Source: Desulfobacterales bacterium | GTDB taxonomy: Bacteria; Desulfobacterota; Desulfobacteria; Desulfobacterales; ETH-SRB1 | DNA length: 64,000 nucleotides | Reading direction: 5' to 3' | NCBI GenBank assembly: GCA_030610995.1 | Contig: JAUWQO010000002.1 | Location: 783-64,782, forward strand | Shown here: one piece after another, positions 248 through 62,372 of the stretch | Layout of the letters: the number at the start of each line of letters is the position of its first letter | How positions within the stretch are numbered: position 1 is the first letter of the stretch | Made by a program: the position numbers and the translations under genes | The notes under the pieces: model-generated | The model's input: the letters and a program-made list of their open reading frames with translations, nothing else | Database searches by the model: none | Told to the model about the DNA's origin: nothing

Positions 248-394
248 GAGCAATTAGCCATTAGCTTTTAGCTATTAGTCAAACTATATCAAGACGTTAT
301 TAAACAATAACATTTCACCCAATGGGTGATTATAAATAATTATACGAATGCATATTTCATAAGAGCCAACGGCTAATTGCTAACAGCTAATCGC
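248..394. repeat. word-arm palindrome (attagc/gctaat words)
   Basis: Left arm gagcaattagccattagcttttagctattag. Right arm ccaacggctaattgctaacagctaatcgc is its imperfect reverse complement. An AT-rich loop lies between them. Confidence 0.75.
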
Positions 395-412
395 TTAACG
401 TAGGTATAAACA

Positions 413-1084
413 ATGAAGTTGATCGAGCTTTCAGATTATACCCTTTCCCCACTAGGTCAAGGAAACGGCCTTAACCGATTTTATTTTGACCTGTCAAAGG
501 GGGATGTATGTTCCATACAGGCAGATCTGCCGGATGACGCACACCTGTTTCTAAAGGCTATTGCAATGCTTGAGCATCCAACAGACGGCGTTTATCGATT
601 TATGGGAAAAAAGATTAATTTTTTAGACCATAGAAATCTTCTTCCATATAAGAAAAAAATAGGCTATATTGCTACAGACACATCGATGATCAGCAATATG
701 AGTATCAGAGAAAATCTTCTATTAATGCGATACTATTTTGAAAATTCACTCTCCATTGACATAAAGGATAATGTAAAAAATTTATGCGTTATTTTCGACA
801 TTTATGACAAACTGGATATTCGTCCGGGCGAGCTCAGGCCAACGGAGCTGCAAAGCGCCATTGCAATCAGAGAAGTTACCAAATCGCCCGATATACTGTT
901 GTTTGAACGGCCTGAAAATTTCATCAGGCATACAAAATTTGATCTCTTTGCTAAACTCTTTAAAGAAATGTTACTATCCGGACTTCCCGTTGTTTTTATT
1001 TCTTATGATGCAGATTTTGTTAAAAAGTTTTCAAACAGGAAGATACTTATTTCAGGCGGAAACTTGACAACCGTTTCAGCTTAG
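413..1084 (+). CDS. ABC-ATPase-fold protein with degenerate Walker A, signature and Walker B motifs (pseudo-NBD in the MlaF position)
   Basis: 223 aa with NBD-like order (..SMISNMSIRENL.., ..PDILLFERPE.., ..VVFISYDADF..). The P-loop position reads QADLPDDAH, the LSGGQ position reads LRPTEL, and the Walker B D-E reads E-R. Confidence 0.6.
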   Translation: MKLIELSDYTLSPLGQGNGLNRFYFDLSKGDVCSIQADLPDDAHLFLKAIAMLEHPTDGVYRFMGKKINFLDHRNLLPYKKKIGYIATDTSMISNMSIRENLLLMRYYFENSLSIDIKDNVKNLCVIFDIYDKLDIRPGELRPTELQSAIAIREVTKSPDILLFERPENFIRHTKFDLFAKLFKEMLLSGLPVVFISYDADFVKKFSNRKILISGGNLTTVSA

Positions 1085-1105
1085 GTGTTTTGAGTGCATT
1101 GATGG

Positions 1106-1200
1106 CTTAAGGAACCTACCTGCCTGCCAGCAGGTATAAAATAGGCAGAATTCCTTTAACTTTAGGCACTTTAACATACTTTAACATACTTTAGGCACTT
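1106..1200. repeat. composite hairpin with ctttaggcac words
   Basis: cttaaggaa...ttcctttaa stem followed by tandem actttaggcac/actttaacat words. The same words occur at 3456-3499, 37490-37530 and 37650-37690. Confidence 0.7.
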
Positions 1201-3446: not shown

Positions 3447-3455
3447 AAAACTTAC

Positions 3456-3630
3456 AGTGCCTAAAGTATATTAAAGTGCCTAAAATGAGCTAAAGTTAAG
3501 GAATACGCCTTCGGCGCAGCTAATTATAACTTATAATTGTGTAAAAGTTCGCCGAAGGCAAAATATTTGACCAGGATTAACAGGATTTTTTTACTTTTTC
3601 TTATATCCTGATCATCCTGTATATCCTGTC
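3456..3630. repeat. composite of gtgcctaaag words, a cgccttcggcg/cgccgaaggc hairpin and an atcctg-word hairpin
   Basis: Read directly from the sequence. The left half is nearly identical to 37499-37550. Confidence 0.75.
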
Positions 3631-3689
3631 TAAAATTAGCTGAACTATTACAAGAATTCCTTATAAAAATTCAAAGATGGGGGAAGATT

Positions 3690-4871
3690 ATGAAACACAA
3701 TAAAATTATGGGCATATGTCTTGTTTTGGGAATTATATTTCTTTTTGTATCAACCAGTTATAGCAAAATGGTGACGGTTGTAGGGCAGGGAATGGATCGT
3801 AAAAGCGCTATTGCTGATGCCCAGCGGGCTGCAGTCGAACAAGGCATAGGCGCTCTCATCGATTCCAAAACCAGGGTTGCGAACTTTGAGGTTCTGCAGG
3901 ATAGGATTTATTCGAGGGCAAGCGGTTATGTAACTAATTATAATATATTGTCTGAAGGAAAAAGTCCGGACGGCTCAATATACACCGTAACCATGCGGGC
4001 TGACGTACAAACCGCTTCGATTAAAAATGATTTAAAGGCAATCGGCATTCTAATGGCACAGATCGGCAACCCCCGCTTTATGGCGATTTATATTCCTGAA
4101 ACCAGGAGTTCAATGCACAGGGATTCCAGGGTAGTCAGAGCCGCCGAGCAGGCAATTAACGGAGTCTTTGCCAGAAAAGGCTTTATAGTCCTGGACAAAA
4201 TGTTCGTTAATGATGTTTACAGCGAGATAGAGCAAGCCGGCCGGATTGATGTGGATATGGATGACCTTTCCGCTCTTGCCTTAAAATATAAGGCAGACCT
4301 GCTTCTTGTATATGATGTGCATGCGGCGAGCAAGACCGGTGGATCAAGCAGGTATTTTGGCGGCGTCATCGTTGAAATAGCATTGCGTGCCGTTGCTCCG
4401 GCCACTGCAGATCTTATAGCTCAAAAATCGGGCGATCTGTACGTAAAAACCATAAAAGCAGCAGGAAATTATTATGAAAATATGCAGGCTGCAAAGGCTT
4501 CGGATAAATTGGGAAAAGCGATTGCAGATGCTTTAATTGAAGATACACTGTCTTATTTTGAGCGTGCTGTTCACGCTGGAACCCGTTTTGATGTATGGTT
4601 TAGAAACTTTTCAGAACAAGAAACCTATGTAATCGTTGATGTAATTGAGGGAATGACCGCTTTTAAGGACAAGCATGTTAGAAATGAATCGCCTGGAAAT
4701 TTTCAGCTTGATGTAAACTACCAGGGAAGAAAATTCGATTTTAAGCGGGAGCTTTACAGGGGCTTGCAGAATCAGGGCATCCTGTTTGATACTCAGCAGG
4801 CCAAGGGAAATCGTTTTCTGCTTTTCAAGAAAGGAAGCGACAATCCATTTGGCGCTATTAATATTAATTGA
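3690..4871 (+). CDS. secreted protein, N-terminal LPP20/FlgT-N-like region, function unknown
   Basis: Signal peptide (IMGICLVLGIIFLFVSTSYS). GQGMDRKSAIADAQRAAVEQGIGALIDSKT...YVTNYNILSE resembles LPP20/FlgT_N-type domains. The stop codon lies inside the left inverted repeat of a MITE-like element. Confidence 0.45.
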   Translation: MKHNKIMGICLVLGIIFLFVSTSYSKMVTVVGQGMDRKSAIADAQRAAVEQGIGALIDSKTRVANFEVLQDRIYSRASGYVTNYNILSEGKSPDGSIYTVTMRADVQTASIKNDLKAIGILMAQIGNPRFMAIYIPETRSSMHRDSRVVRAAEQAINGVFARKGFIVLDKMFVNDVYSEIEQAGRIDVDMDDLSALALKYKADLLLVYDVHAASKTGGSSRYFGGVIVEIALRAVAPATADLIAQKSGDLYVKTIKAAGNYYENMQAAKASDKLGKAIADALIEDTLSYFERAVHAGTRFDVWFRNFSEQETYVIVDVIEGMTAFKDKHVRNESPGNFQLDVNYQGRKFDFKRELYRGLQNQGILFDTQQAKGNRFLLFKKGSDNPFGAININ

Positions 4872-5080
4872 TGACGTCGTAAAAAGTCGTCACTCCGGTG
4901 AAAACCGGAGTCCAGATGGTTTGCAACTGCTTGAAATGATCCGCCAGAGTGCTTTGGCGGACTTTCGCCGGAATGACGGAAAACACACTCTTTTGTCATT
5001 CCCGCGAAGGCGGGAATCCAGTATCTTGTTTATCCTGTTAATCCTGTCAAAAAAGTTTTGGACTTTTTACGACGCCATCA
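4869..5080. repeat. MITE-like 212-bp element with 20-bp terminal inverted repeats (19/20)
   Basis: tgatgacgtcgtaaaaagtc pairs with gactttttacgacgccatca. Internal hairpin modules recur at 47233-47264 and 51255-51290. Confidence 0.7.
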
Positions 5081-39635: not shown

Positions 39636-40176
39636 AAAGGCGCACCTACACAGGACATAAAAAGTATTTTTATTAGTAGGTTTGTGCAATAACAAAGCAA
39701 TGAACCCGAAAGAAAAAGCTATGGCACTTTTTGTATTTTGCATATTTCACTGTTGAATATAGCTTTTGCCAGCGCATCATCAGCTTTTTCTTCCAGTTAT
39801 TGCTGCCGTTATTTAAAGGGTAAATTTCTTGGCATAGTAGTATAATAGTATTGTATAATCATCAACTTATCCATCATTCCCCAGATATCACCTGTCAAAT
39901 GCGAGCGTTGATGCGTTTGCAAACTTTCTTGTTCGTAGTGCTGGTTTTGGCGATATTATCCATACACCAGGTGATAATATGTTTGGTGATATTGAATACG
40001 GTAGGCAACTTGCTGTCTTCATGATGCACTACAATGTTGAGGGATAGTAATTTACAGCTTTGTTTATAACGGCATTTGATAACTGGAAAAACCGAACAAT
40101 GCCATACACCCGACCGCTACAGTCGCTGCGCTCCTTTCGCGTCGGGTGATGGCTGGCGTTGGGGTGCAAAAAAAAT

Positions 40177-40527: not shown

Positions 40528-40675
40528 TTAAATAGAGCCCCCAACAAACGGCTGCAGTTGACGGCCTCCGCAATTTTGCGGCCTATTGTTGTCCAATATT
40601 ACGCATTCATTTACTGCTTCGAATCAAGTTCAGTATGGGCCGCAACTGAGCCAGGGTTAGGCATCAGGAATAATT

Positions 40676-41368: not shown

Positions 41369-41440
41369 CAAAACTTTTACAGCGGACCGCAAAAAGCCGC
41401 GGCCGCTGAAAAGCGACGTTATTTATAAGGAAAAATAAAA

Positions 41441-42034: not shown

Positions 42035-42733
42035 ATATAGATAACACATATGAGTCTTTCCGTGTCAACAGGCAATAAAAAGTTAATGAGATAAAGCTAA
42101 GCTTTTCCCTATATCCTTTTTTAACAAGCAAACTCCCTGACTTAAATTCTAAATTAATTAATCTGCTACAAACACATATGAATCAAACATCTACCCTTAT
42201 TCACAGATAGTTGCGATATTTATATGTAATCTGCAACATCGTCATCTGCAACCCAATTGCCATTATTACTTCCTAACTTATCTTCAAAAATGCCTTTTAG
42301 ACTTCCTCACAGGCCATATAAGAGCACTTCCATCCCTTACGCAATGAATGGCATTAGTTAATCGAATCCATTATTTTATTTTTTTCTTAATTTATCATTG
42401 TCATAATCTTTTATCCGACCAGATTTATTGTCTGCGGTACCTATGATATGATGACGTAGAGCCTTTCGCGGCTTATTTATTAATGCCCCCCCTATCCTCA
42501 CTTCTTTATAATAAAAACATCAGACTGATAACAAAATAAACTGAAGTAATTTATATCATTAATTAGGAGCCATTTTCCCCCCGCGGGCAGATGGCTTTTT
42601 TTGTTTTGAAAGGAGGATAATAGAAACAGCATAACGAAAGAAGACTTAAAACAATAATCATAAAACAGAAACAAAGAGCCTTTATTGTCGGATATTCCGG
42701 CTTTAAGGGCTTTTTTGTTTGAAGGAGGATAAC

Positions 42734-42949
42734 ATGACAAGGCAGCAGGAAAAGGAATATCAGGAGACAGAAATGTTGCGGGAGATACTATACAAAGCAT
42801 TAGCAGGTAAAAAGTTTCGTCTGGATTGCGGACACCACATAACTTTCGGACATTTCCTTGGAAATGATATTACTATTTTCAATGGGAAAAGATGTAAAAT
42901 TATATGTTCACAGTGCGGATATTATAAAAAAGTCGACGGTGATAAATGA
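42734..42949 (+). CDS. small Cys/His-rich protein (possible zinc ribbon)
   Basis: ATG 42734 follows AGGAGG. CGHH...CSQC. Confidence 0.35.
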   Translation: MTRQQEKEYQETEMLREILYKALAGKKFRLDCGHHITFGHFLGNDITIFNGKRCKIICSQCGYYKKVDGDK

Positions 42950-43326
42950 AAGCGTTTACCAAGAAGTTTAATTTGGCGAACATTTAAACTTCGTTTTCCT
43001 GATAGGATTTCAGATACAACTCCTTGGCTACCTAATTCCGATAAATCGCTTTGTGTCAAATTAAGTTCTTTCATAAAATATTTTAGGGCATCAATTGGAT
43101 CGCCTTCTGAAAATGGGAAATGTTCTTTATCATAAGCTTCTATTAACGTTCCAACAGTATCCATCAATACGGCTAATGGATGTTTTTCATCATTTCCAAC
43201 TTTGTCAATCAATTGATCTAAAAAAGTTGCCAAATTGTCATATTCGTCTTCTGTGCCGGGAACTGATAAAAAAGGGGCTAACGGTTGCCATTTATTTGAT
43301 ATTTCATCCAGACTATACATAACCAT
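42922..43326 (-). CDS. higA: HigA-family HTH antitoxin
   Basis: 134 aa. C-terminal XRE-type HTH (LTQSDLSELGSQGVVSEILSGKRSLNVRQIKLLGKRF). Confidence 0.75.
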   Translation of the reverse strand: MVMYSLDEISNKWQPLAPFLSVPGTEDEYDNLATFLDQLIDKVGNDEKHPLAVLMDTVGTLIEAYDKEHFPFSEGDPIDALKYFMKELNLTQSDLSELGSQGVVSEILSGKRSLNVRQIKLLGKRFHLSPSTFL

Positions 43327-43329
43327 GAT

Positions 43330-43540
43330 TCATTCCTTCCATTTACCTTTGTCATATTCTGCATGTGATAATACATGACGAACATAGAGCTTGTTGCGAT
43401 TGAAATGTATTGCTGCAACCAAACGTACTTTGTTTCCACCGATATTAAATACAGTCAATTTGCTTACCCTATCAGCATTAGGGAAATGCTCTTTTAGTTT
43501 AGTGAACGAACTAAAATTTTGGAAAGCGGGATGTCCTGAA
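43330..43540 (-). pseudogene. higB: higB toxin, 5'-truncated (no start codon)
   Basis: The frame reads ...KLKEHFPNADRVSKLTVFNIGGNKVRLVAAIHFNRNKLYVRHVLSHAEYDKGKWKE*, which matches the HigB C-terminal two thirds. About 30 N-terminal codons are missing. Confidence 0.7.
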
Positions 43541-43550
43541 CCAAAACAAA

Positions 43551-43582
43551 TAAAAAAAGGACTTAGATTTTTCTAAGTCCTT
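43551..43582 (-). terminator. intrinsic terminator downstream of tRNA-Glu
   Basis: On the minus strand, aaggacttag-aaaaat-ctaagtcctt is followed by a T-run. Confidence 0.6.
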
Positions 43583-43594
43583 GATTTTTTTTTG

Positions 43595-43672
43595 TGGCGT
43601 CCCCAACCGGATTTGAACCGGTGCTGCCGGCGTGAAAGGCCGGTGTCCTGGGCCAGGCTAGACGATGGGGAC
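43595..43672 (-). tRNA. tRNA-Glu (UUC), CCA encoded
   Basis: Hand-folded cloverleaf GTCCCCA...CCGGC-CTTTCAC-GCCGG...ACCGG-TTCAAAT-CCGGT-TGGGGAC-G-CCA. Confidence 0.95.
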
Positions 43673-43679
43673 GCATATA

Positions 43680-43755
43680 TGGTGGGCCGTGCGCGGCTCG
43701 AACGCGCGACTCTCTGCTTAAAAGGCAGATACTCTACCAACTGAGTTAACGGCCC
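43680..43755 (-). tRNA. tRNA-Lys (UUU), CCA encoded
   Basis: Hand-folded cloverleaf GGGCCGT...TCTGC-CTTTTAA-GCAGA...GCGCG-TTCGAGC-CGCGC-ACGGCCC-A-CCA. Confidence 0.95.
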
Positions 43756-43837
43756 TGTTAAAAAAACAAATATCTTAATGATAAGTTTTATTCTTGTCAA
43801 TAAAAATAGTTGTAATACTATAGCCCTTTGAAAAAAA

Positions 43838-43875
43838 TCAGACAGGATAACAGGATAAACAAGATTTTGTTTCGA
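43838..43875. repeat. aggata-word arm (reverse complement of the atcctgt words)
   Basis: Its reverse complement caaaatcttgtttatcctgttatcctgtctg nearly equals 5025-5047. Confidence 0.7.
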
Positions 43876-43941
43876 GTAAACAAACAAGGTTAAGTCTTGC
43901 TCTAATTAGCCAGTAAATCATAAAAAATCATATCCTGAGAA

Positions 43942-44125
43942 ATGAAATACAGAGAATTGACTGAGAAAATCATTGGCTGTGCATATAGAGTTTACAATCG
44001 AATGGGTTATGGTTTTAAGTTTAACTATTAATTTCGGTGAACGGAAAGCCCGCCCACCTCGTCTGAGCTCGCAATGGCGGGCGGGTTGAAATCAAACGCA
44101 AAGTAAGGGATTTTGATGAGGATTT
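43942..44125 (+). pseudogene. GxxExxY-family (PD-(D/E)XK-like) gene relic with internal deletion
   Basis: MKYRELTEKIIGCAYRVYNRMGYGF is the family N-terminus, then a stop. LTINFGERK and VEIKRKV C-terminal pieces lie in other frames around a GC hairpin insert. Confidence 0.6.
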
Positions 44126-44160
44126 ACCCTCCAGAGGCGGACAAGCATGATGAATTTTGA

Positions 44161-44199
44161 TGTTTTAATCCTGAATATCGTGTTAATCTTGTCAAAGAA
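44161..44199. repeat. atcctg-word arm facing 43838-43875
   Basis: ttttaatcctgaatatcgtgttaatcttgtcaaag. Confidence 0.55.
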
Positions 44200-44232
44200 G
44201 TCTTTTTTGAAAGACCTAAATTGCTACGAATA

Positions 44233-47232: not shown

Positions 47233-47264
47233 CTGGATTCCCGCCTTCGCGGGAATGACAAAAG
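47233..47264. repeat. 32-nt module identical (inverted) to 4990-5021
   Basis: ctggattcccgccttcgcgggaatgacaaaag is the exact reverse complement of cttttgtcattcccgcgaaggcgggaatccag. Confidence 0.9.
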
Positions 47265-47574: not shown

Positions 47575-48495
47575 TCATATGTGAAAACAATCACCATAAA
47601 CAACCTTTTTGATTGATCCGTCTGCGAGTTTCAATATCAACGCTCCGTTTTCATCCACATCTATTGCGAGCCCTTCAGATGTATCATGGCTTGTTACTAC
47701 CTTTACGCGGCGGTTAAGGGTTGTTGTATATTTTTTCCATTCGGGGATTATGTCGTCAAAGACCGTATTATTAATGCAGGTTTCGAATTCATCCAGAAAC
47801 TTAGAAAGGAGCTGTTTTCTTGATATTTTTTTCCCGAGAATAGATCTTAATGACGTGGCTGTTGGTTCTTTTGGCGTTGGATTGTTATTCACATTTATAC
47901 CAAGACCGATATTTATAAAAGAGACCATATCTGCTTCCGCCTCTATTTCAGACAGCATCCCGGAGATCTTTCCGCCATTGACCAGTATGTCGTTTGGCCA
48001 CTTGACCATGGCATTAATACAAAACATTTGACGTAACAATTGAGCAAGAACAAGTGAGGCTGCAAAATTGAGCCTCAGGCTTAATACAGGAGGTATCTGC
48101 GGCCTTAGCACAATGGTAAAATAGAGCCCCCCTTCTGAAGAATGCCAGATCCTCTTTAAACGACCTCTGCCCTTTTTCTGGCATCCGGCTATTACAACAG
48201 TAAAATGTGGACACCCCTTCCTGGCAAGCTCTCCGGCAATATCCATTGTTGAGGTTACTTTGGGGAAAAAGTGGATTTTTGATTCTCTATCTGGAAATTC
48301 CCATGGGAAAAGGGCGTCAATAGAGCCTATAAGCCGGTATCCCGTTGTGGTTGCAATAATATTATATCCGAACCCCTGAAGTTTGCGGATATGTTTCCAT
48401 ATAGAAACTCTTGAAATCCCAAGCTCAGAACTAAGCGCCTCGCCTGAAACAATCCCTTTTTTTCTTTTGAATATTTTAAGTATCTGTCCCTTCAT
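47575..48495 (-). CDS. birA: bifunctional biotin-protein ligase / bio operon repressor
   Basis: N-terminal HTH (LSSELGISRVSIWKHIRKL) and the KKGRGRLKRIW biotin-binding loop. Confidence 0.9.
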   Translation of the reverse strand: MKGQILKIFKRKKGIVSGEALSSELGISRVSIWKHIRKLQGFGYNIIATTTGYRLIGSIDALFPWEFPDRESKIHFFPKVTSTMDIAGELARKGCPHFTVVIAGCQKKGRGRLKRIWHSSEGGLYFTIVLRPQIPPVLSLRLNFAASLVLAQLLRQMFCINAMVKWPNDILVNGGKISGMLSEIEAEADMVSFINIGLGINVNNNPTPKEPTATSLRSILGKKISRKQLLSKFLDEFETCINNTVFDDIIPEWKKYTTTLNRRVKVVTSHDTSEGLAIDVDENGALILKLADGSIKKVVYGDCFHI

Positions 48496-48620
48496 ATCTG
48501 GCCCTTCATATTTGGCCCTTCATATTTGGTTAACCGTTTAAGTTTACGAGGTTAACCAAATATGCGCTATGTGTCAATAATATTTGACGGGAGCAAAATC
48601 TAATATAAATTTGAGCAAAT

Positions 48621-48810
48621 GTAACAGTTCAGCCACCAAGACACAAAGAGACCTTTGCATAACCCCCACTTTTGCCCAATTTTGGTCATTGCGAGGAGCA
48701 AAGCGACGCGGCAATCTCGTAGCTTATCAATGTGTTATGAGATTGCTTCGCTTCGCTCGTAATGACAATACTTGAATTATGCAAAGGTCTTACAAAGTCA
48801 CAAAGGAGGG
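48621..48810. repeat. nested hairpin element, copy A (cacaaag words, gacctttgcataa stem, cattgcgaggagcaaagcgacgcggcaatctc stem)
   Basis: gacctttgcataa (48650-48662) pairs with ttatgcaaaggtc (48777-48789). The inner arms are 48686-48718 and 48739-48766. Confidence 0.85.
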
Positions 48811-48991
48811 ATATGATTGATTACTCAAAATCTATATCGGATTTTGGGATAAAATTTTAGGTTGACTGTTTCATTTATCTGACCTAATTATTAAAGATTC
48901 TTTCAGCTTGTTGGAGCGAAGCGTAAATCCCGTCTCGCGGGGCTCCAGTCCCACTTTCGGGCGGGTTTTAATCATAAAAAAAGCAGATGAT

Positions 48992-49789
48992 ATGCCTTTT
49001 TCAATCGCCCTTGCAGGAAAGGGAGGCACAGGAAAAACAACTTTAGCAGGCATGCTGATTAAATATTTAGTCGGCAAGGGGAAAATCCCTGTCCTTGCGA
49101 TAGATGCCGATTCCAATGCTAATTTAAATGAGGTGCTTGGCCTTGAAGTTGCCGATACGCTCGGCAATGCCCGCGAAGAAATGAAAAGCGGCAAAGTTCC
49201 CGTCAGTATGAGCAAGAATGTTTTTATGTCAATGAAACTGGAACAGGCTATAATTGAGGCAGACGGATATGACCTGTTGGTTATGGGACAGCCTGAAGGG
49301 GCGGGCTGTTATTGTGCTGTAAATAATCTTCTTGCAGGATTTATGGAACGGCTGAGCGACAATTATCCTTATATTGTCATGGATAATGAGGCTGGAATGG
49401 AGCATATAAGCCGGCTGACCACAAAAAATGTTGATCTTCTTCTCGTTGTTTCCGACACATCAAGACGCGGTCTTCAGACTGCCTCAAGAATCAATGAACT
49501 CGCAAAAAATCTCAGCGTAGTGGCCGGCAAAAGCTATCTTGTTCTAAACAGGGCAAATGAGCCTTTGCCCGATCCTGTCCGTAATATGATTAAAAATGAG
49601 GAGCTTGAGCTTGTGGGAACAATACCTGAGGATAGTGCGGTATACGAATATGATTTAAATGGACGTCCAACAATCGAACTGCCAAATGATAATCCGGCCG
49701 TAAAAGCGGCATTTATGATATTTGATAAAATTATTAACGTAAAAGGTCAGCCACTAAGTCACAAAGGCACAAAGAAGGGCTATGATTGA
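48992..49789 (+). CDS. cooC: CooC/AcsF-type Ni-insertion ATPase (MinD/ParA fold)
   Basis: Start moved to MPFSIAL. GKGGTGKTT P-loop and the GAGCYCAVNN CxC motif. The last roughly 12 codons are encoded by a repeat element. Confidence 0.8.
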   Translation: MPFSIALAGKGGTGKTTLAGMLIKYLVGKGKIPVLAIDADSNANLNEVLGLEVADTLGNAREEMKSGKVPVSMSKNVFMSMKLEQAIIEADGYDLLVMGQPEGAGCYCAVNNLLAGFMERLSDNYPYIVMDNEAGMEHISRLTTKNVDLLLVVSDTSRRGLQTASRINELAKNLSVVAGKSYLVLNRANEPLPDPVRNMIKNEELELVGTIPEDSAVYEYDLNGRPTIELPNDNPAVKAAFMIFDKIINVKGQPLSHKGTKKGYD

Positions 49790-49976
49790 GGAATTGCGAA
49801 TTGAGGGATTGAGGGATTAAGGGATTAAGATCAGCAGAATACCTTCAATTCCTAAATTCCCAAATTCCTCAATTCGCAATTAAGCGAAGCGAATCTCTAA
49901 ATTCCTAAATTGTAGATTTCAAAAGAATTATATTATAATCTTGGTGTCTTCGTGTCTTTGTGGCTGAACTATTACT
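49747..49976. repeat. nested hairpin (cacaaag outer words, gagggatt/aattcc inner words)
   Basis: Outer arm tcagccactaagtcacaaaggcacaaag faces ttggtgtcttcgtgtctttgtggctga. Inner arm ttgcgaattgagggattgagggattaagggattaag faces cttcaattcctaaattcccaaattcctcaattcgcaa. Confidence 0.85.
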
Positions 49977-50034
49977 TATTAACTAAAGGTTAGTCATGAA
50001 ATGTCCGGGCTAACCGCTACTTGAAGAGAAGTAT

Positions 50035-50988: not shown

Positions 50989-51000
50989 ATAATAAAAATT

Positions 51001-51331
51001 GTAACGGCTTAGCCACCAAGACACAAAGTCACAAAGGAAAGACATATTTTTCAAAACCTTATATGAAAGGAAGAATTGAGACCTTTGAATAACCGCTGTT
51101 TTAGTCATTGCAAGGAGCAAAGCGACGCGGCAATCTCGTGGATTATCAATGTGTTGTGAGATTGCTTCGCTTCGCTCGCAATGACAATATAGGCATCTTG
51201 CAAAGGTCTCGAATTCATTCTCCAAAAAATTTACAGATATTGCTTTTTACTGTGCATAAGAAATATCCGCCAGAGCCCGTTGGCGGATTAGAATCTTAGT
51301 GTCTTTGTGACTTTGTGGCTGAACTATTACT
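51001..51331. repeat. nested hairpin element, copy B of 48621-48810, with extra modules
   Basis: Carries the same cattgcaaggagcaaagcgacgcggcaatctc...gagattgcttcgcttcgctcgcaatgac core. The outer agccaccaagacacaaagtcacaaagg faces gtgtctttgtgactttgtggct. Confidence 0.85.
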
Positions 51332-51393
51332 AAAAATTGAATATAATTTTTAAACAAAACAAGATGTCTTGAACAAAAGTAGTGGAGGGGAAA

Positions 51394-52123: not shown

Positions 52124-52963
52124 ATGCTTATAAAATCCTGGGGATCGAGAGGTTCCATTCCTGTTTCAGGTAAAGAATATCTCAAGTATGGCGGTGACAC
52201 CGCATGTATAGAAATCAGGGCAAAAAGCAATGATATCATAATTATTGATGCCGGAACCGGGATTCGAAGGCTCGGCAATAAATTGATGGGAGAGAAAAAC
52301 TCTACCTATAACATCATCTTCACCCATGCCCATTGGGATCACGTAATGGGACTTCCCTTTTTTAAGCCTCTATATTTTAAAAACACCACACTGCGGATGC
52401 ACAAATGTCCCTTTCACAGTAAATTCGTGGAAAACATACTTCCCAAGCTGATGTCTCCTCCTAACTTTCCTGTAAAATTCTCCAATTTAAAGGCAAACAT
52501 ATATTACGAAGAAGCATGCTCCAAAGAATTTAAGATCGGATCAGTATCGATAATCCCTATCCGTATCAGCCATCCCAACGGCGGCAGTGGATATAAATTC
52601 ATTGAAGATAATAAAACTTTTGTTTTTCTGACAGACAATGAACTTGGTTTTGTCCATCCCGGAGGCCTTTCATATAAAGACTATCTGGAGTTTTCTTCAG
52701 GCGCTCATCTGCTTATTCATGACGCCGAATACACGCCTGACGATTATGAAAACTATATAGGATGGGGGCATTCTGAATATACTCGTGTGCTGGATCTATC
52801 CTTTGAAGCCGGAGTAAAAAAATTGGGCCTGTTCCATTTAAACCAGGAAAGAACAGACAGAGAAATGGATGATATTGTCAAAAAATGCAAAACCATCATA
52901 GCTCAAAAAGGAGAAAACCTTGAATGCTTTGGTGTCGGCAGCGATATGACCTTTGAGCTTTAG
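52124..52963 (+). CDS. MBL-fold metallo-hydrolase
   Basis: FTHAHWDH zinc-binding motif; 279 aa. Confidence 0.75.
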   Translation: MLIKSWGSRGSIPVSGKEYLKYGGDTACIEIRAKSNDIIIIDAGTGIRRLGNKLMGEKNSTYNIIFTHAHWDHVMGLPFFKPLYFKNTTLRMHKCPFHSKFVENILPKLMSPPNFPVKFSNLKANIYYEEACSKEFKIGSVSIIPIRISHPNGGSGYKFIEDNKTFVFLTDNELGFVHPGGLSYKDYLEFSSGAHLLIHDAEYTPDDYENYIGWGHSEYTRVLDLSFEAGVKKLGLFHLNQERTDREMDDIVKKCKTIIAQKGENLECFGVGSDMTFEL

Positions 52964-53106
52964 TTCGCTTTGCTCACAATTGGTCGAGTGGTTGATTAGT
53001 CGAGTAGTTGAGTAGTTAACCACTCGACCATTTTCCCACTCGACCACTCGACTATTTTCCCACTCGACCATTTTCCCACTCGACCAATTGTGAGCAAAGC
53101 GAACTA
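52961..53106. repeat. perfect 31-bp inverted repeat with ggtcgagt-word interior; probable bidirectional terminator
   Basis: tagttcgctttgctcacaattggtcgagtgg (52961-52991) is the exact reverse complement of 53076-53106. Both convergent TAG stop codons lie in the stem. Confidence 0.85.
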
Positions 53107-54459
53107 AGTTTTGTTTTTCAGTTTTTTATAGAGGTAGCTTCGCTTAACCCCTATTGATTCGGCTGTTTTTGCAACATTATTATCGTGTTGCAAAAGTTTT
53201 TTTTGGATAAATGCTTTTTCAAAGGCCTTTTTTGCATCCTTTAAAAAATCGATTATAAACAACTGCGATTCAACAAGCCCCAAACCTTCCCCAAGGTTTG
53301 AATTATATGGCGCCGGTATATCGGAAACATCAATTATATCGTTTTCCGTCATGATAGCCATCCGCTCCACAAGATTCTTCAGTTCTCTGACATTTCCCGG
53401 CCATGAGTAGGCACATAAAATATCGAGCGCTTCTCTGGTTATTTTCTTTCTTTTACTGTGATTTTGTTTTGTGCTTTCATCTAAAAAGGTTTCAACAAGA
53501 AGCGGAATATCCTCGCAACGACTCTTCAGGTTTGGGACTTCGATAGGTATTACATTTAACCGAAAGTAAAGATCCTCTCTAAAGCTTCCATTTTCAATCT
53601 CCCTTTCAAGATCTTTGTTGCTGGCGGCAATTATTCTGACATTGACACTTAATGTTCTGCTTCCTCCGACACGCTGGAATTTTTGTTCCTGCAACACGCG
53701 AAGAATTTTGGCCTGTGTTTTTAAACTCATATCCCCTACTTCATCAAGGAAAATCGTTCCATTGCTTGCCAGCTCAAATTTGCCTCTTTTCTTGCCGGTC
53801 GCTTCAGTAAACACCCCTTTCTCGTGGCCAAACAGCTCGCTTTCAATCAATTCTTCCGGAATTGCGGCGCAACTGACATCAATAAAGGGTTGATCCACCC
53901 TTGGGCTTAACTGGTGAATTGCACGCGCAACAAGCTCCTTGCCTGTGCCGTTTTCTCCTGTGATAAGGATCCATGCATCTGTCGGGGCTGCAATCGCTAT
54001 CTGCTTTTTCAGAGCCACGGTTGGAGAGCTGTCTCCGTTTATCGAGTGCTTTTCTATTGTCTTTTTTCGAAGATATCTGTTTTCCTCTTCAAGCCTCCTG
54101 AAGTTTAGCGCATTATTAATCGCAACAATTACCTTCTCAATCGAAAGCGGTTTTTCAATTAAATCAAACGCTCCAAGCTTTGTGGCCCTAACAGCGGTTT
54201 CTATTGTCCCGTGCCCCGATATTATTATTACCTGGATAAAGGCATTATTTTTTTTTATCTCCTTTAATGTCTCAATTCCGTCGATACCCGGCATCCATAT
54301 ATCAAGCAAAACAAGATCCGGTGACTCGCTATCTATAATCTTTAAGGCTTCATAACCATTGGTGGCCGTTATGACCTCAAAACCTTCATCATAAAGTAGA
54401 CCGCTTAAAGACTGGAGTATGGATGGTTCGTCGTCAACAATCAGAATAGATGGAAACAT
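53104..54459 (-). CDS. ntrX: sigma-54-dependent response regulator (NtrC/NtrX family)
   Basis: Receiver domain, AAA+ domain (GENGTGKELVARAIH) and a Fis-type HTH (AKTAESIGVKRSYLYKKLK). Confidence 0.75.
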   Translation of the reverse strand: MFPSILIVDDEPSILQSLSGLLYDEGFEVITATNGYEALKIIDSESPDLVLLDIWMPGIDGIETLKEIKKNNAFIQVIIISGHGTIETAVRATKLGAFDLIEKPLSIEKVIVAINNALNFRRLEEENRYLRKKTIEKHSINGDSSPTVALKKQIAIAAPTDAWILITGENGTGKELVARAIHQLSPRVDQPFIDVSCAAIPEELIESELFGHEKGVFTEATGKKRGKFELASNGTIFLDEVGDMSLKTQAKILRVLQEQKFQRVGGSRTLSVNVRIIAASNKDLEREIENGSFREDLYFRLNVIPIEVPNLKSRCEDIPLLVETFLDESTKQNHSKRKKITREALDILCAYSWPGNVRELKNLVERMAIMTENDIIDVSDIPAPYNSNLGEGLGLVESQLFIIDFLKDAKKAFEKAFIQKKLLQHDNNVAKTAESIGVKRSYLYKKLKNKT

Positions 54460-54520: not shown

Positions 54521-54620
54521 GGTTCGCTTCGCTTAATTGCGAATTTAGGGATTCAGGAATTTGGGAATTGAAGGTATTCTACTGATTTTTAATTCCTCAA
54601 TCCCTTAATCCCTTAATCGC
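54521..54620. repeat. inverted, diverged copy of the 49791-49893 gagggatt/aattcc element
   Basis: ggttcgcttcgcttaattgcgaatttagggattcaggaatttgggaattgaaggtattct...aattcctcaatcccttaatcccttaatcgc. Confidence 0.8.
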
Positions 54621-57449: not shown

Positions 57450-57460
57450 AATATGCGTAA

Positions 57461-57770
57461 GCGTTCACGGAACGTTGAAATTAGAAATTGGAAATCAATG
57501 TCATTAACTTAAGGAGTAGATGTCGCTGTGGGAGCGGCTTTTAGCCGCGATTGTAGCTTTGGAGCGCACATTTTTTCGTGGCTGAAAGCCACTCCCACAA
57601 ACAAAATTAGCTTAAGTTAATGGCATTGAATTAGAAATTGGAAATCTGGCCTTCATACTTTTGTGCTGTTCTTCCCAATTCCCAATTCCTAATTTCCAAT
57701 TTCTATTTTAATCTCTCCCCAATTTCTACTTTCCAATTTCAAGTTTCAAGCCGTGAACGTCTACAATATA
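57461..57770. repeat. nested palindrome of about 310 bp (gaaattggaaat words, REP-like tgtgggagcggc core)
   Basis: gcgttcacgg pairs with ccgtgaacgt, caatgtcattaacttaag with cttaagttaatggcattg, and gtgggag with ctcccac. Confidence 0.8.
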
Positions 57771-58982: not shown

Positions 58983-61900
58983 TTATTTGATATCCGCATG
59001 ATAAGCCTGAAGAGATTTTACCCCGGCTTTTCCTGTTCTTCGCGCGGCAATTCCCTTGGCGGCTGCCAGCGCTGCAGCCGTAGTGGTAATATTTAAAATC
59101 TTATACTCGATCGCCGCTTTCCGGATATAGGAATCGTCATCCTTGCTCTCCTTTCCACTGGGCGTGTTGATAATCAGATGGATTTCTCCATTTTTGACAG
59201 CATCCACAATGTGCGGCCTGCCATATCCCAGTTTGCGGATAGTTTCCGACTCAATGCCATGTTCTTGCAGAAAATTATGTGTTCCCTTTGTAGCCAGGAT
59301 CTTGAACCCTAACTCACCGAACAACCTGGCCGGTTCCAGGGCGCTCGGCTTGTCTTTGTCAGCAACGGTAATAAGAACGGTTCCCTCAATCGGCAGTGAT
59401 AGTTGAGTTGCTTTCTGGGCTTTAAAAAAAGCAAGGCCAAATGAATCCGCCAGCCCCAAAACTTCTCCGGTAGACCGCATTTCCGGCCCCAGGAGGGGAT
59501 CGACTTCAGGAAACATTTTAAATGGGAGCACAGCCTCCTTAACGCCGAAATAGGGGATATGCTTTGCTTTCAGGTTGAGATCAGAGATTTTTTTGCCCAT
59601 AACCACCTGGGTGGCAAGCCGTGCCATAGAGATGTTACAAACTTTGGAAACAATCGGCACTGTGCGTGAGGCCCTGGGATTGGCTTCCAGAATATAAACA
59701 GTGTCATTTGCGATAGCATACTGGATATTCATAAGCCCGATCACATTGAGCTCGATGGCAATCTTTTTTGTGTATTCGTAAATGGTCTCTAAGTGTTTCA
59801 AAGGGATGCTCACCGGAGGAACTACACACGCGGAATCGCCGGAATGCACACCTGCCAGTTCAATATGCTCCATAACCGTGGGAACAAAGGCATCGGTTCC
59901 GTCGGCAATCGCATCTGCTTCAGCTTCAATGGCGTTTTCCAGGAATTTGTCGATCAGTATCGGGCGCTTTGGTGAAACATCTACGGCTGCCGACATATAA
60001 TGCATAAGCATTTCTTCGTCATGGACAACTTCCATGGCGCGTCCGCCAAGAACGTAAGAGGGACGAACCATTAATGGGTATCCGATTCTTTCAGCTATTT
60101 CGAGGGCCTTTTCCAGGGTGCTGGCCATGCCGGATTCGGGTTGGGGAATTTTCAGCTTGCGCATAACCTTACGGAATCGGTCCCGATCCTCTGCCAGATC
60201 TATTGTTTCAGGAGAAGTCCCTAAAATTTTGACTCCTGCTTTTTCCAGGTCATTGGCGATATTCAGGGGCGTTTGCCCCCCGAACTGGATAATAACCCCT
60301 TCTGGTTTTTCCTTTTCATAAATACTTAATACATCTTCAACGGTAAGCGGTTCAAAATAAAGCTTGTCCGAAGTATCGTAATCAGTAGAAACTGTCTCAG
60401 GGTTGCAATTAACCATTATCGATTCATACCCTGCATCACGGATAGTAAATGCAGCATGCACGCAGCAGTAGTCAAACTCAATTCCCTGCCCTATACGATT
60501 GGGGCCTCCGCCAAGCACCATGATTTTTTTGCGATCGCTTACCTCGATTTTATCCGGCGCATTATAAGTGGAATAGTAATAGGCGGCGTTTTCAACGCCG
60601 CTGACCGGCACAGGTTCCCATGCCTCGACAATCCCAAGCGAAATACGCTTTTCCCTGATATCCTTTTCTGAAATCCCGAGAAGAAGGGAAAGATATTTGT
60701 CTGCAAATCCGTCCTTTTTCGCGCGGATGAGCAGATCATCCGGAAGTATCTTTCCGTTGTATGTTAGAATCTCTTCTTCAAGATCTACCAGTTCCTTCAT
60801 CTGTTTAATAAACCAGGGCTTAATATGGGTAAGCTCATAAAGATCCTGGATGTCGGCTCCTTTGCGCAGAGCCTCGTACATAATAAACTGGCGTTCGCTT
60901 GTGGGGATAACCAGCATATTCATTAATTCAGTTAGAGACTTTTTATTGAAGTCTCTGGCAAAACCAAGACCATAGCGGTTTATCTCAAGGGATCGGATTG
61001 CTTTTTGAAACGCCTCCTTGTAATTTTTCCCGATGCTCATGGCTTCGCCAACAGCGCGCATCTGGGTTCCAAGCTTATCCTCAACGCCCTCGAATTTTTC
61101 AAAAGCCCATCTGGCAAATTTTACTACCACATAATCACCGGAAGGGGTATATTTTTCAAGGGTGCCGTCACGCCAGTAGGAAATTTCATCCAGGGTCAGA
61201 CCACCGGCAAGCATGGCGGAAATAAAGGCAATCGGAAAACCGGTTGCCTTGGATGCCAGGGCGGACGATCTGGAAGTTCTCGGGTTAATTTCTATAATAA
61301 CAACCTTGTCTGTTTTGGGATCATGTGCGAATTGAACATTTGTGCCGCCGATAACTTCGATTGCCTCGACAATATCATAAGCATACTTCTCAAGACGCTT
61401 TTGCAGCTTGGAATCAATAGTCATCATCGGCGCCGTGCAAAAAGAATCACCGGTGTGAACACCCATGGCATCGACATTTTCGATAAAGCAAACAGTAACC
61501 ATCTGGTTTTTAGCGTCCCGTACCACTTCCAGTTCAAGCTCTTCCCATCCCAGGACCGATTCTTCAACCAGAATCTGGTTTACAAGGCTTTCAGCCAAAC
61601 CGCGTTTAGCGATAATGCGAAGTTCTTCAACATTATAGACCAAACCGCCGCCGGTGCCGCCCATTGTATAGGCCGGACGAATCACAACAGGGTAACCCAG
61701 TTCCACAGCAACTTTTTCAGCGTCTTCAACTTTGTTTACCGTTTGGCCCTTCGGCATTTCAATGCCAAGCCGCTCCATGGTTTTTTTGAAGGCCGTGCGA
61801 TCTTCTCCTCGCTTAATAGCATCGACAGTTACACCGATGACCTTCACATTGTATTCATCCAGAACGCCTGCCTGCGCCAGTTCAGATGATAAATTCAAGG

Positions 61901-62183
61901 CGGACTGACCCCCTAAATTCGGCAGCAGGGCATCGGGGCGTTCCTCTTTGATAATCTCTGTTAATACTTTAACATTAAGAGGTTCGATATATGTAACATC
62001 AGCCGTTCCCGGGTCAGTCATGATTGTTGCAGGATTCGAGTTCACCAGAACGATTTCATAACCGAGAGAACGCAGAGCTTTGCATGCCTGAGTGCCGGAA
62101 TAATCGAATTCACACGCCTGGCCAATGATAATAGGGCCTGAACCGATGATAAGTACCTTTTTTACGTCGTCGCGTTTTGGCAT
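58983..62183 (-). CDS. carB: carbamoyl-phosphate synthase large subunit
   Basis: Start moved to MPKRDDVKKVLIIGSGPIIIGQACEFDYSG; the 25-codon tracked extension is repeat DNA. Duplicated ATP-grasp halves and an MGS-like C-terminus. Confidence 0.95.
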   Translation of the reverse strand: MPKRDDVKKVLIIGSGPIIIGQACEFDYSGTQACKALRSLGYEIVLVNSNPATIMTDPGTADVTYIEPLNVKVLTEIIKEERPDALLPNLGGQSALNLSSELAQAGVLDEYNVKVIGVTVDAIKRGEDRTAFKKTMERLGIEMPKGQTVNKVEDAEKVAVELGYPVVIRPAYTMGGTGGGLVYNVEELRIIAKRGLAESLVNQILVEESVLGWEELELEVVRDAKNQMVTVCFIENVDAMGVHTGDSFCTAPMMTIDSKLQKRLEKYAYDIVEAIEVIGGTNVQFAHDPKTDKVVIIEINPRTSRSSALASKATGFPIAFISAMLAGGLTLDEISYWRDGTLEKYTPSGDYVVVKFARWAFEKFEGVEDKLGTQMRAVGEAMSIGKNYKEAFQKAIRSLEINRYGLGFARDFNKKSLTELMNMLVIPTSERQFIMYEALRKGADIQDLYELTHIKPWFIKQMKELVDLEEEILTYNGKILPDDLLIRAKKDGFADKYLSLLLGISEKDIREKRISLGIVEAWEPVPVSGVENAAYYYSTYNAPDKIEVSDRKKIMVLGGGPNRIGQGIEFDYCCVHAAFTIRDAGYESIMVNCNPETVSTDYDTSDKLYFEPLTVEDVLSIYEKEKPEGVIIQFGGQTPLNIANDLEKAGVKILGTSPETIDLAEDRDRFRKVMRKLKIPQPESGMASTLEKALEIAERIGYPLMVRPSYVLGGRAMEVVHDEEMLMHYMSAAVDVSPKRPILIDKFLENAIEAEADAIADGTDAFVPTVMEHIELAGVHSGDSACVVPPVSIPLKHLETIYEYTKKIAIELNVIGLMNIQYAIANDTVYILEANPRASRTVPIVSKVCNISMARLATQVVMGKKISDLNLKAKHIPYFGVKEAVLPFKMFPEVDPLLGPEMRSTGEVLGLADSFGLAFFKAQKATQLSLPIEGTVLITVADKDKPSALEPARLFGELGFKILATKGTHNFLQEHGIESETIRKLGYGRPHIVDAVKNGEIHLIINTPSGKESKDDDSYIRKAAIEYKILNITTTAAALAAAKGIAARRTGKAGVKSLQAYHADIK

Positions 62184-62194
62184 CAAAAACCCTT

Positions 62195-62372
62195 TCGATT
62201 GATGATTGATGATTTTCGATTGATGATTTATTGAGTCGCTTCGCTCCGTCTTTTTCAATAAAAGACACTGTCATTAATCTAAGGGCTCGCTTAAAAATAT
62301 TGAATCAAACCTTTCTGTTAATGACCTTGAAATAAAATCGGCAGAATACCTTCAATCGACAATCATCAATTG
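62195..62372. repeat. gattgatgat-word palindrome upstream of carB
   Basis: tcgattgatgattgatgattttcgattgatgatt faces caatcgacaatcatcaattg. It shares the gcagaataccttcaat module with 49834-49849 and, inverted and diverged, with about 54570-54590. Confidence 0.75.

Follow-up and report, generated by a model that had tools for sequence, protein, structure and literature searches.

Intergenic palindromes of a Desulfobacterales genome are probably stacked mobile elements with tandem 7–8-base word arms

The palindromes in the housekeeping intergenic spacers of the window (the whole stretch of 64,000 nucleotides analysed here, from an uncultured, sulfate-reducer-like Desulfobacterales bacterium) are probably stacked mobile elements whose arms consist of tandem 7–8-base words, rather than purpose-built hairpins. 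The spacers themselves would have received insertions of small, non-autonomous mobile elements of several families, namely MITEs and small-cassette derivatives without a gene. The initial annotation of this DNA, which had invoked a dedicated generating or maintenance mechanism, or selection for insulating hairpins, is partly supported: there are several families, modules are shared between sites, and repeats are missing from the lipid cluster and the island, as it had claimed.

Dispersed short repeats are found in 15 of the 27 window spacers of at least 60 nt, and in nearly all of those that belong neither to the lipid cluster nor to the island, in agreement with the statement that most spacers carry them; genome-wide, the share is 62% of spacers. 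With gene boundaries taken from a crude in-house ORF caller, short repeats (at least five copies) make up 30% of intergenic versus 0.6% of coding bases in the whole genome, and the density of tandem arrays (TRF score of at least 30) is 126 per 100 kb between genes versus 5.2 within them for period 7, and 80 versus 4.9 for period 8, about 25-fold higher between genes for arrays of period 7 or 8. The genome holds 1362 arrays (53 per 100 kb, while 1 Mb of unrelated loci has 9.6 per 100 kb), with ~145 heptamers and 139 octamers in use as words, and 76% of the intergenic arrays lie inside sequence repeated at least five times. Array pairs no more than 300 nt apart are reverse complements in 246 cases and direct in 56. 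Relative to shuffles, the MFE z-score is below −4 in 30% of spacers versus 1% of matched coding segments, and reaches −14 in the spacer at 52964–53103. This genome-wide census, in which repeats, arrays, inverted pairs and folding all exceed the controls by far, establishes that the nested spacer palindromes are real and that the repeats are concentrated between genes; word arrays and inverted arms were recovered at every site named in the initial annotation.

Two word-armed families end in GTAA, with inverted repeats of the IS66 type (GTAAGCG..., GTAAYAGTTCAGCC...), and both have 8 bp of AT-rich target sequence duplicated at their flanks: the shell family, with the TIR GTAAYAGTTCAGCCAC, and the AAATTGG family, with the TIR GTAAGCGTTCACGG. 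The flanking 8-mers are identical in at least seven of eight positions in 15 of 28 paired shell copies and in 16 of 30 AAATTGG copies. Both duplications are perfect for the complete shell copies of the window. The first copy, 49739–49975 (+), runs from GTAAAAGGTCAGCCAC to GTGGCTGAACTATTAC between two copies of TTATTAAC (49731–49738 and 49976–49983), and its interior holds a GAGGGATT/AATTCCTA hairpin (49792–49881) with the core at 49834–49849. The second, 51001–51330 (+), lies between two copies of TAAAAATT (50993–51000 and 51331–51338), and holds an M2 MITE (51078–51210) and an M4 hairpin (51265–51288). M2, the 'LRFARNDN' module, is itself a TIR-bounded element (TIR GAGACCTTTG) with 5-bp duplications, GAATT in this copy and ACAAA in the copy at 48648–48791, which breaks a solo left end of the shell family (GTAACAGTTCAGCCAC and CACAAAG words; 48621–48815, +); an uninterrupted reference copy is found at C180:53222. 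Elements are nested within elements, the inner ones with their own duplication, as for an AAATTGG copy with CCAAATTA on either side (C34:13885), and this insertion of element into element gives rise to the 'onion' palindromes and to the discrete modules common to several sites. Three findings count against the mobile-element reading: some 'nested' copies replace the interior rather than insert into it (e.g., C139:19089), a recognisable GTAA-type end is present within 60 nt of only 18% of the intergenic arrays, and ends and duplications could not be defined for the GGTCGAGT, GATTGAT, TTCGATG and GAGGGATT/core hairpins. The description of the repeats as no simple REP or MITE family holds insofar as there are several families, but the elements are MITE-like, with TIRs and 8-bp or 5-bp duplications.

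The modules are common to sites with different words, as had been described. The 32-nt M1 hairpin at 47233–47264 (−), GTCATTCCCGCGAAGGCGGGAATCC, is the exact reverse complement of 4990–5021; the repeat shared by 48680 and 51099 is 111 nt long, with 89% identity; GCAGAATACCTTCAAT is present at 49834, ~54560–54575 (minus strand) and 62341, and the ATCCGCCAGAG hairpin at 4940 and 51265. The element at 4869–5080, bounded by the 20-nt TIRs TGATGACGTCGTAAAAAGTC and GACTTTTTACGACGCCATCA (inverted repeat, 95%), contains ATCCTGT words and three GC-rich REP-like hairpins, M5, M4 and M1 (4990–5021), which have 29, 87 and 85 genomic copies, respectively. A composite at 3452–3651 combines GTGCCTAAAG words, the GC hairpin cgccttcggcg, ATCCTGT words (3602–3629) and a shell-type right terminus, AGCTGAACTATTAC, at ~3638–3651. 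The TTCGATG-word element at 37380–37755, with up to 65 other copies, has a GC hairpin inserted in its left arm, a GTGCCTAAAG-word hairpin (37492–37685) nested in its centre, and its right arm at 37713–37743. Words of the AGCTAAT/ATTAGC type form a hairpin at 249–395 (arms 249–278 and 360–395, centre of ~80 nt, spacer z = −7.4), and CAATTG/AATTGAC words another at 31697–31817, while an inverted repeat with 39-nt arms (ACTCAAGTTTCGC...) at 2179–2309 has a sister copy at 31981–32142. At 1137–1193 (+), an array of ACTTTAGGCAC/ACTTTAACAT words that forms a right arm comes after the core-like motif GGCAGAATTCCTTTAAC, and the left arm is absent. The GGTCGAGT octamer builds a palindrome between response-regulator and substrate-binding-protein genes (35913–35973), a short hairpin immediately 3' of a stop codon (37222–37284), and a 148-nt palindrome (52960–53107) that exactly spans the gap between convergent genes, including both stop codons. 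A GAGGGATT/core hairpin lies upstream of an NtrX-like regulator gene (54523–54618, −), and a hairpin of GATTGAT words that includes the core (GGCAGAATACCTTCAAT at ~62341) between a purF-like gene and carB (62197–62375, +), the true start of carB being near 62183.

Comparison with congeners, whose genes are ~91% identical, reveals orthologous spacers that are empty or hold a different element. In congener G006, the spacer of 249–395 is instead occupied by an element of the GAGGGATT/core type that has a shell end, that of 1137–1193 by a different element with TFYEFIK-type TIRs, and that of 3452–3651 is empty (~54 nt versus 243 nt here). The site at 49739–49975 is empty in G001 and G006, with a single TTATCAAC; the spacer of 52960–53107 has AGCTAAA words in G001, TGAACC words in G005 and is empty in G006; and the spacer of 57457–57764 measures 0–57 nt in G001, G005 and G006. 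The element at 54523–54618 is shared with G006, where it has a 37-nt internal duplication and another word count, and its site is empty in G005 and taken by GGTTCAC-word elements in G001 and G004. The spacer of 62197–62375 is reduced to 0–10 nt in G005 and G006, and the same insertion is present in G004. These empty and differently occupied spacers speak for insertion and turnover, not for maintenance; no indication of a dedicated generating mechanism was found.

The initial annotation had proposed a search for RAYT transposases, and the genome has ten PF01797 hits; the RAYT-like proteins are of ~320 aa, with a C-terminal domain that resembles the end of DnaA, and the NF047646 cut-off is exceeded by one of them. 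GTAG-tagged REPs, present in 75 and 12 copies in the genome, flank two of the RAYT genes. Nested at 57520–57600 is a REPIN-like doublet with 52 copies, and the M5 hairpin carries a CGTC tag. As in REP/REPIN–RAYT systems and BIMEs, short GC-rich hairpins occur in dozens of copies and modules form mosaics. The word hairpins might accordingly be REPIN-like and owe their movement, in single-stranded form, to the genome's own RAYT-like Y1 (HUH) transposases. However, the RAYT-flanking REPs are other than the modules of the window, the long, AT-rich word arms do not resemble REPs, and Y1 transposition leaves no target duplication, whereas duplications of 8 and 5 bp are observed here. We consider such an origin very improbable.

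The ends of the mobile elements resemble those of another family. IS66 inverted repeats begin with GTAAGCG, and 8-bp direct repeats are made (PMC11946415); in ISDge4, the TIR is GTAACTGCTCAGCA and the direct repeat measures 8 bp (PMC12898284). Like IS66 insertion sequences and the MITEs and mobile insertion cassettes derived from them, the elements here have TIRs starting with GTAAGCG or GTAA and 8-bp direct target duplications, and the shell TIR GTAAYAGTTCAGCC is close to that of ISDge4 (PMC12898284, PMC11946415). They are also, like IS66-derived MITEs, small and devoid of a transposase gene, so their movement must rely on a transposase in trans. IS66 DDE genes are present in 9 of 18 genomes of the bacterial family, and congener G001 has a 3.3-kb IS66 copy with the TIR GTAACTATTCAGGGG. 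No IS66 transposase was found in this assembly, a difference from IS66 elements and a point against the mobile-element reading. Two further differences are the subterminal arms of tandem 7–8-nt words, of which the full IS66 copy of G001 has none, and a PF05635 passenger gene that one family here carries or derives from. We propose that an IS66-family DDE transposase would move the GTAA-ended families in trans, and that subterminal sequence would expand, contract and homogenise by replication slippage into tandem 7–8-nt word arms. Through such slippage-driven change, the arrays would split into subfamilies (GATTGAT, GATTGAA, GATTGTC, GATTGAGG) faster than the unique centre. We note that slippage alone does not explain the restriction to periods 7 and 8, a point against the mobile-element reading.

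The AAATTGG family derives by internal deletion from a ~430-nt cassette that has a PF05635 ('23S rRNA intervening-sequence protein') gene between the same ends. An intact PF05635 ORF lies inside an AAATTGG element at C153, G003 and G001 have the full cassette, complete with its two TIRs and a 7/8 duplication, and deletion variants retain pieces of the ORF. In the window copy at 57457–57764 (−), GTAAGCGTTCACG...CGTGAACGTCTAC, the centre is formed by the last codons and the stop codon of the gene, and the left arm holds a TIR-bounded insert (57485–57639) with a REPIN-like GTGGGAGCGGC hairpin pair. The 23S rRNA intervening sequences with an ORF (Coxiella burnetii, Leptospira; S23p/PF05635) similarly have a PF05635 gene in the loop of a terminal-inverted-repeat stem, and are selfish, share the orientation of the transcription unit in which they lie and are tolerated there (PMC4990558). 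Unlike those insertions in rRNA helix 25 or 45, the elements here lie between protein-coding genes, mostly without an ORF, and bear ends and duplications indicative of a DDE transposase, a type of enzyme not known to move intervening sequences. PF05635 genes number 11 in this genome and 4–19 per genome across the bacterial family, and at least six of seven examined here lie between inverted word arrays, with words varying by gene. These numbers, together with the descent of the AAATTGG family, would suit a separate class of selfish cassettes, with the four-helix-bundle PF05635 protein as partner, the words as putative binding sites and the IS66-like ends acquired secondarily. We consider this distinctly unlikely, as the families with defined ends all show DDE-type duplications and the 1362 arrays compare with only 11 PF05635 genes; moreover, we know of no catalytic activity of PF05635.

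Other systems share single traits with the mobile elements described here. Neisseria has Correia elements and Geobacter has Chunjie MITEs, both of them abundant MITEs of operons and spacers whose RNA folds into long hairpins; such elements can bring promoter-like hexamers and affect transcript processing. The spacer elements here are likewise abundant long-hairpin MITEs inside operons, but Correia elements are a single family with TA duplications and without tandem-word arms, whereas the elements here belong to many families, are nested and make duplications of 8 or 5 bp. Heptamer repeats between genes are also known from the cyanobacterial STRR sequences. Those of TAACTGA occur in Beggiatoaceae, Cyanobacteria and Bacteroidetes (PMC4679880). 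In these systems, as here, tandem 7-nt units are confined to spacers and have a set orientation relative to the downstream gene, and close relatives have shorter, repeat-free spacers. The arrays here differ in being inverted pairs inside TIR-bounded elements and in their many heptamers and octamers, TAACTGA being outside the 40 commonest.

The elements are positioned 0–20 nt past stop codons or 7–60 nt ahead of start codons, and are biased in orientation: 43:2 for the AAATTGG centre motif relative to flanking genes (22:0 for complete copies), 29:10 for the core and 28:11 for the TATAAT end of the shell. In 42 of 58 cases, the core faces the 5' end of a gene that has the same orientation, and shell and core modules have a TATAAT or TAGAAT hexamer ahead of the right arm. 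A ~55-nt centre (…TAGAATACCTTCAAT) is conserved across five genera, between arms of differing words, and is nearly identical in another genus (L084); the core 15-mer is found in 18 of 19 genomes of the bacterial family. All this favours the view of the initial annotation, by which the host keeps or generates the hairpins for a function between cistrons, be it as insulators, terminators, RNA-processing sites or promoter modules, and mobility is secondary. Against it stand the target-site duplications, which show insertion, and the close relatives that evidently manage with empty orthologous spacers. Selection for terminator-like insulating hairpins is not supported: there is no sign of intrinsic terminators (13 terminator-like sites versus 15.9 expected), the stems are rich in A and T, and word variants do not follow a mirrored order in the two arms. 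There is no sign of sigma-70 promoters (46 sigma-70-like sites versus 37.6 ± 5.8) and no match to a known RNA family in Rfam, and the sense strand folds only slightly better than the antisense (58% versus 41%), with equal folding of the AAATTGG element in both orientations. We judge host-kept units to be unlikely.

Two observations also run counter to the mobile-element reading: core-type elements combine a conserved centre with variable arms, the reverse of a transposase-recognised element, and a bias of 43:2 is unexpected from neutral DDE transposition. If, inside operons, mobile elements survive only in an orientation and position neutral to expression, this would account for the orientation bias, and their RNA hairpins are probably processed in the manner of intervening sequences. 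With so strong a bias in orientation and so conserved a centre, a function or constraint that acts on transcription may still play a part.

The word-armed palindromes of the window belong to a phenomenon that is real and genome-wide. The window covers positions 783–64782 of contig C59 in a draft genome of 3.02 Mb (200 contigs, 42% G+C), and its CarB protein shares ~80% identity with proteins from metagenome bins of Thermodesulfobacteriota/Desulfobacterales. In a Tandem Repeats Finder survey of the whole genome (score of at least 30), period-7 and period-8 arrays occur at 126 and 80 per 100 kb of intergenic DNA, against 5.2 and 4.9 per 100 kb of coding DNA. Together with the multiples 14 and 16, these periods reach ~25 times the coding density in intergenic DNA, whereas the remaining periods are enriched at most ~six-fold, with far fewer arrays, and periods 6 and 12 show no enrichment. 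Overall, 53 such arrays are present per 100 kb, compared with 9.6 per 100 kb in a 1-Mb sample of unrelated genomes. Their vocabulary is limited to ~145 heptamers and 139 octamers, a few of which are used dozens of times; TAACTGA (canonical AACTGAT) is absent among the 40 commonest heptamers, and the unit is not that of the TAACTGA/STRR heptamer repeats.

The initial annotation described these spacers as palindromes of repeated words with shared modules, and the genome-wide census agrees, giving both the strong intergenic excess and an inverted pairing of the arrays. Within 300 nt, reverse-complement partners number 246 and direct partners 56 (4.4-fold, ~217 loci). Folding z-scores below −4 are found for ~30% of spacers versus 1% of length-matched coding segments, and the 140-nt spacer at 52964–53103 reaches z = −14. 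By self-comparison, short repeats with at least five other copies make up 30% of intergenic bases (197 kb) versus 0.6% of coding bases, and occupy 62% of spacers of at least 60 nt genome-wide and 15 of 27 in the window. Each module that had been named was recovered in its place or directly beside it; the shared 32-nt module at 47233–47264 is the exact reverse complement of 4990–5021. The lipid cluster and the island had been described as repeat-free, and nearly all of the 12 window spacers without repeats indeed fall within the island or the 24-kb lipid cluster.

Two word-armed families have defined ends. The shell family carries GTAAYAGTTCAGCCAC at each end. Its complete copy at 49739–49975 starts with GTAAAAGGTCAGCCAC, ends with GTGGCTGAACTATTAC and is flanked on both sides by TTATTAAC, a perfect duplication; two congeners, in which this site is empty, have TTATCAAC once. 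The complete shell at 51001–51330 is likewise flanked by a perfect duplication, TAAAAATT. Genome-wide, the flanking 8-mers are identical at seven or more of eight positions in 15 of 28 paired shell copies, with 77 additional solo ends. The AAATTGG family, written GTAAGCGTTCACGG...CCGTGAACGGCTAC, has the ends GTAAGCGTTCACGG and GTAGCCGTTCACGG, and the same level of identity (at least 7/8) is found in 16 of its 30 complete copies. The hallmark of IS66 is the combination of inverted repeats starting with GTAAGCG and direct repeats of 8 bp (PMC11946415), and the shell end resembles that of ISDge4, a member of the ISBst12 group (PMC12898284). Both families thus combine the GTAA(GCG)-type terminal inverted repeats (TIRs) and the 8-bp target duplication by which IS66-derived MITEs are recognized.

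The elements also sit inside one another. The module read as 'LRFARNDN' (M2) is an element in its own right, bounded by GAGACCTTTG ends and by duplications of 5 bp, ACAAA and GAATT, as read against an uninterrupted shell copy. An AAATTGG element lying within a shell has its own duplication, CCAAATTA, and the onion structure therefore arises at least partly from insertion into earlier insertions. In another AAATTGG element, the insert at 57485–57639 has its own 29-nt inverted ends (AATGTCATTAACTTAAG...) and the same 18 nt of word array (AATTAGAAATTGGAAATC) on both sides, which is a long duplication or else a chance product of the array. In some shells (C139:19089-19313 compared with C71:3943-4102), cargo substitutes ~110 nt of the interior between constant flanks and without duplication, which suggests recombination or deletion besides insertion.

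The IS66 transposase (PF03050) has no match in the genome under study, an absence that weighs little because the assembly is a draft in 200 contigs. Among the genomes of the family, 9 of 18 encode it, and congener G001 has a 3.3-kb IS66 copy with ends GTAACTATTCAGGGG, a TIR that is similar but not identical. A recognizable GTAA-type end lies within 60 nt of only 18% of arrays. An automated scan of 211 hairpin loci for target duplications gave 10% versus 5.5%, figures that carry no weight because the scan did not recover the known AAATTGG duplications. In sum, nested non-autonomous mobile elements whose arms are tandem words are the best explanation for the spacers. Since MITEs, REPs and nested insertions are all familiar phenomena, the basic answer is an ordinary one.

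The orthologous spacers of four same-genus genomes and one sister-genus genome, collinear with 44–64 kb of the window, show turnover of this content, the site being empty or holding a different element in congeners. Congener genes share ~91% nucleotide identity, yet spacer lengths differ by up to 340 nt. The purF–carB spacer is 230 nt in the window and 0–10 nt in two species, and the window's insertion is also found in the related genome G004. The spacer following the MBL-fold gene holds a GGTCGAGT palindrome in the window, AGCTAAA words in G001, TGAACC words in G005 and nothing in G006, and three further spacers near the window start show the same differences in occupancy. Gain and loss of these sequences therefore proceed on the time scale of speciation.

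The initial annotation had also suggested a dedicated generating or maintenance mechanism and had proposed a search for REP-associated Y1 transposases (RAYTs); ten RAYT-like genes are present in the genome. The small GC-rich hairpin modules M1 (85 copies), M4 (87) and M5 (29), as well as a REPIN-like doublet (52), are all REP-like. Two RAYT-like Y1 transposase genes (C56:4894-5223 and C146:61361-61687) have GTAG-tagged REPs of their own as flanking repeats (GTAGGGGCGGGTTTATCCCGCC, 75 copies; CACGTAGGACGGCCCTACC, 12 copies), in what looks like a classical REP–RAYT arrangement distinct from the word hairpins. These flanking REPs differ from the window modules, and the other RAYT-like genes are without flanking repeats. 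In addition, REPIN–RAYT systems are characterized by the lack of a target duplication, whereas the three families examined have duplications of 8 bp or 5 bp. We note that RAYT-like proteins of ~320 aa (C78:3013-3966 and C139:10841-11848) have a C-terminal domain like the C-terminal DNA-binding domain of DnaA, and that proteins of this kind number about ten per genome across the whole order.

Some word-armed hairpins share a conserved centre, the core, of ~55 nt (GGAATCGCTTCGCTCTGTC-TTTTTGTTATAAAATTAA-TAGAATACCTT), which is flanked by arms of differing words, i.e., GATTGAT, TTCGATG, GAGGGATT, CTTCGACATT, GTGCCTAAAG and GGTCGAGT. The centre is nearly identical in another genus, and its 15-mer is present in 18 of 19 genomes of the family and hardly at all elsewhere in the order. 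Core counts are based on 14–16-mers only; a 10-mer search with one mismatch performs no better than its reversed control (388 versus 371). GATTGA is common to several arm words and the end of the core runs on into the first word of the right arm (CTTCAAT), so the arms read as fast-evolving arrays, homogenized by slippage, around a slower unique centre. The core was also considered as a gene remnant, a candidate that was set aside: the centre halves are 19–26 nt apart in most copies, and an ORF-bearing long form was not found.

The AAATTGG family, in turn, has a gene-bearing parent. The genome holds 11 genes of PF05635, the '23S rRNA intervening-sequence protein' (S23p), and at least six of the seven examined are flanked by inverted word arrays. 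On contig C153, an intact PF05635 ORF of 117 aa lies within an AAATTGG element in the order inverted repeat, words, ribosome-binding site, ORF and ...AGTACAAAAGCATGA, and it is precisely this final stretch that the gene-less AAATTGG copies conserve as their centre. Longer MITE variants of the family keep other pieces of the ORF, and congeners G003 and G001 have complete cassettes with both ends and a 7/8 duplication, AAATAAGG/AACTAAGG. The window copy at 57457–57764 retains only the final PF05635 codons, stop codon included, and thus represents a decayed cassette of the 23S rRNA intervening-sequence type. Intervening sequences in 23S rRNA carry the S23p ORF inside a stem cleaved by RNase III, and their origin was still termed unclear in a 2016 study of the Coxiella element (PMC4990558). 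In the AAATTGG parent (C153, G001 and G003), the TIRs form a stem whose loop contains the PF05635 ORF; the elements seen here sit between protein-coding genes. That the word-armed hairpins are gene-less forms of the PF05635 cassette, moving on IS66-type ends, is possible, though we consider it rather unlikely. Were it so, the tandem words would be putative binding sites for the transposase or for a PF05635 multimer.

In 43 of 45 cases (p = 6e-11), and in 22 of 22 complete copies, the AAATTGG centre points in the direction of its co-directional flanking genes; the biases of core and shell are weaker. The AAATTGG hairpin is equally stable in both orientations, and the asymmetric centre must therefore matter. 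The PF05635 ORF runs in the favoured sense, in which the loop is purine-rich; we infer that the C/U-rich loop of the rare sense might invite Rho-dependent polarity. If the word-armed hairpins are gene-less cassettes, the strictly oriented copies, and likewise the ~55-nt conserved centre, would be putative RNA-processing or expression modules within operons.

Insulating hairpins, the other explanation offered in the initial annotation, did not hold up in their terminator-like form: 13 sites are present between 47 and 63 kb, compared with 15.9 ± 4.5 in shuffles. A GC-rich stem followed by a T tract was called in the same interval, among the repeat modules, only for the small M4 hairpin and for none of the word-armed hairpins. 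A test of selection on RNA structure by G·U asymmetry gives a mild folding advantage of the sense strand, and none for AAATTGG. The order of word variants is not mirrored between the arms, and pairing is thus not finely maintained. At the gathering threshold, Rfam matches in the window are two tRNAs only, and at E ≤ 1 the additional matches are chance ones, including miRNA models on hairpins. A sigma-70 promoter was considered for the core (TAGAAT) and the shell (TATAAT) and is not supported: the hexamers are present, no −35 element lies at 16–18 nt by hand, and a scan is unenriched. Sigma-54 and IHF readings of the core were negative by hand comparison, with GC at −12 and WATCAANNNNTTR both absent.

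The genes flanking the spacers are ordinary housekeeping ones, i.e., trkAH, birA, carB, lpxC, a purF-like gene, two-component systems and parts of ABC transporters. The longest carB ORF begins at a TTG ~75 nt upstream of the CarB profile start, and the extra codons (62183–62258) are the left arm of a GATTGAT hairpin; repeats of this kind inflate ORF calls. The called start of birA is spanned by 3.5 copies of a 14-nt unit, TATCTGGCCCTTCA, at 48481–48529. On a larger scale, G006 is collinear on either side of 5860–31279 and of 31628–44228, yet lacks both blocks, with ~0.7 kb in place of the 24-kb lipid cluster and ~2.2 kb in place of the two-component/ABC genes and the island; the lipid cluster is thus a within-genus indel. 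The right edge of the repeat-free island (37.8–43.6 kb) bears two minus-strand tRNA genes (43598–43755), consistent with the island having integrated beside tRNA genes.

At ~200 kb, or 30% of intergenic DNA, the load of these elements is unusually high for a 3-Mb genome. As a practical consequence, they generate false ORFs and move called start codons, as in the carB call that is ~75 nt too long, and their turnover between species with 91% identical genes means that the content of spacers might be used as a fine-scale marker in an uncultured lineage. The origin of ORF-bearing 23S rRNA intervening sequences has reportedly been unclear since the 1990s, and a PF05635 cassette that has IS66-type ends and an 8-bp duplication, and from which dozens of gene-less copies descend, provides a concrete and testable way in which they could spread. 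In addition, through these elements the tandem 7–8-nt arrays, whose presence in Beggiatoaceae, Cyanobacteria and Bacteroidetes lacks an explanation (PMC4679880), are linked with the arms of defined mobile elements. If the word-armed hairpins are indeed gene-less PF05635 cassettes, the ORF-bearing 23S rRNA intervening sequences and the heptamer and octamer arrays of several phyla would be one class of transposase-mobilized cassette.
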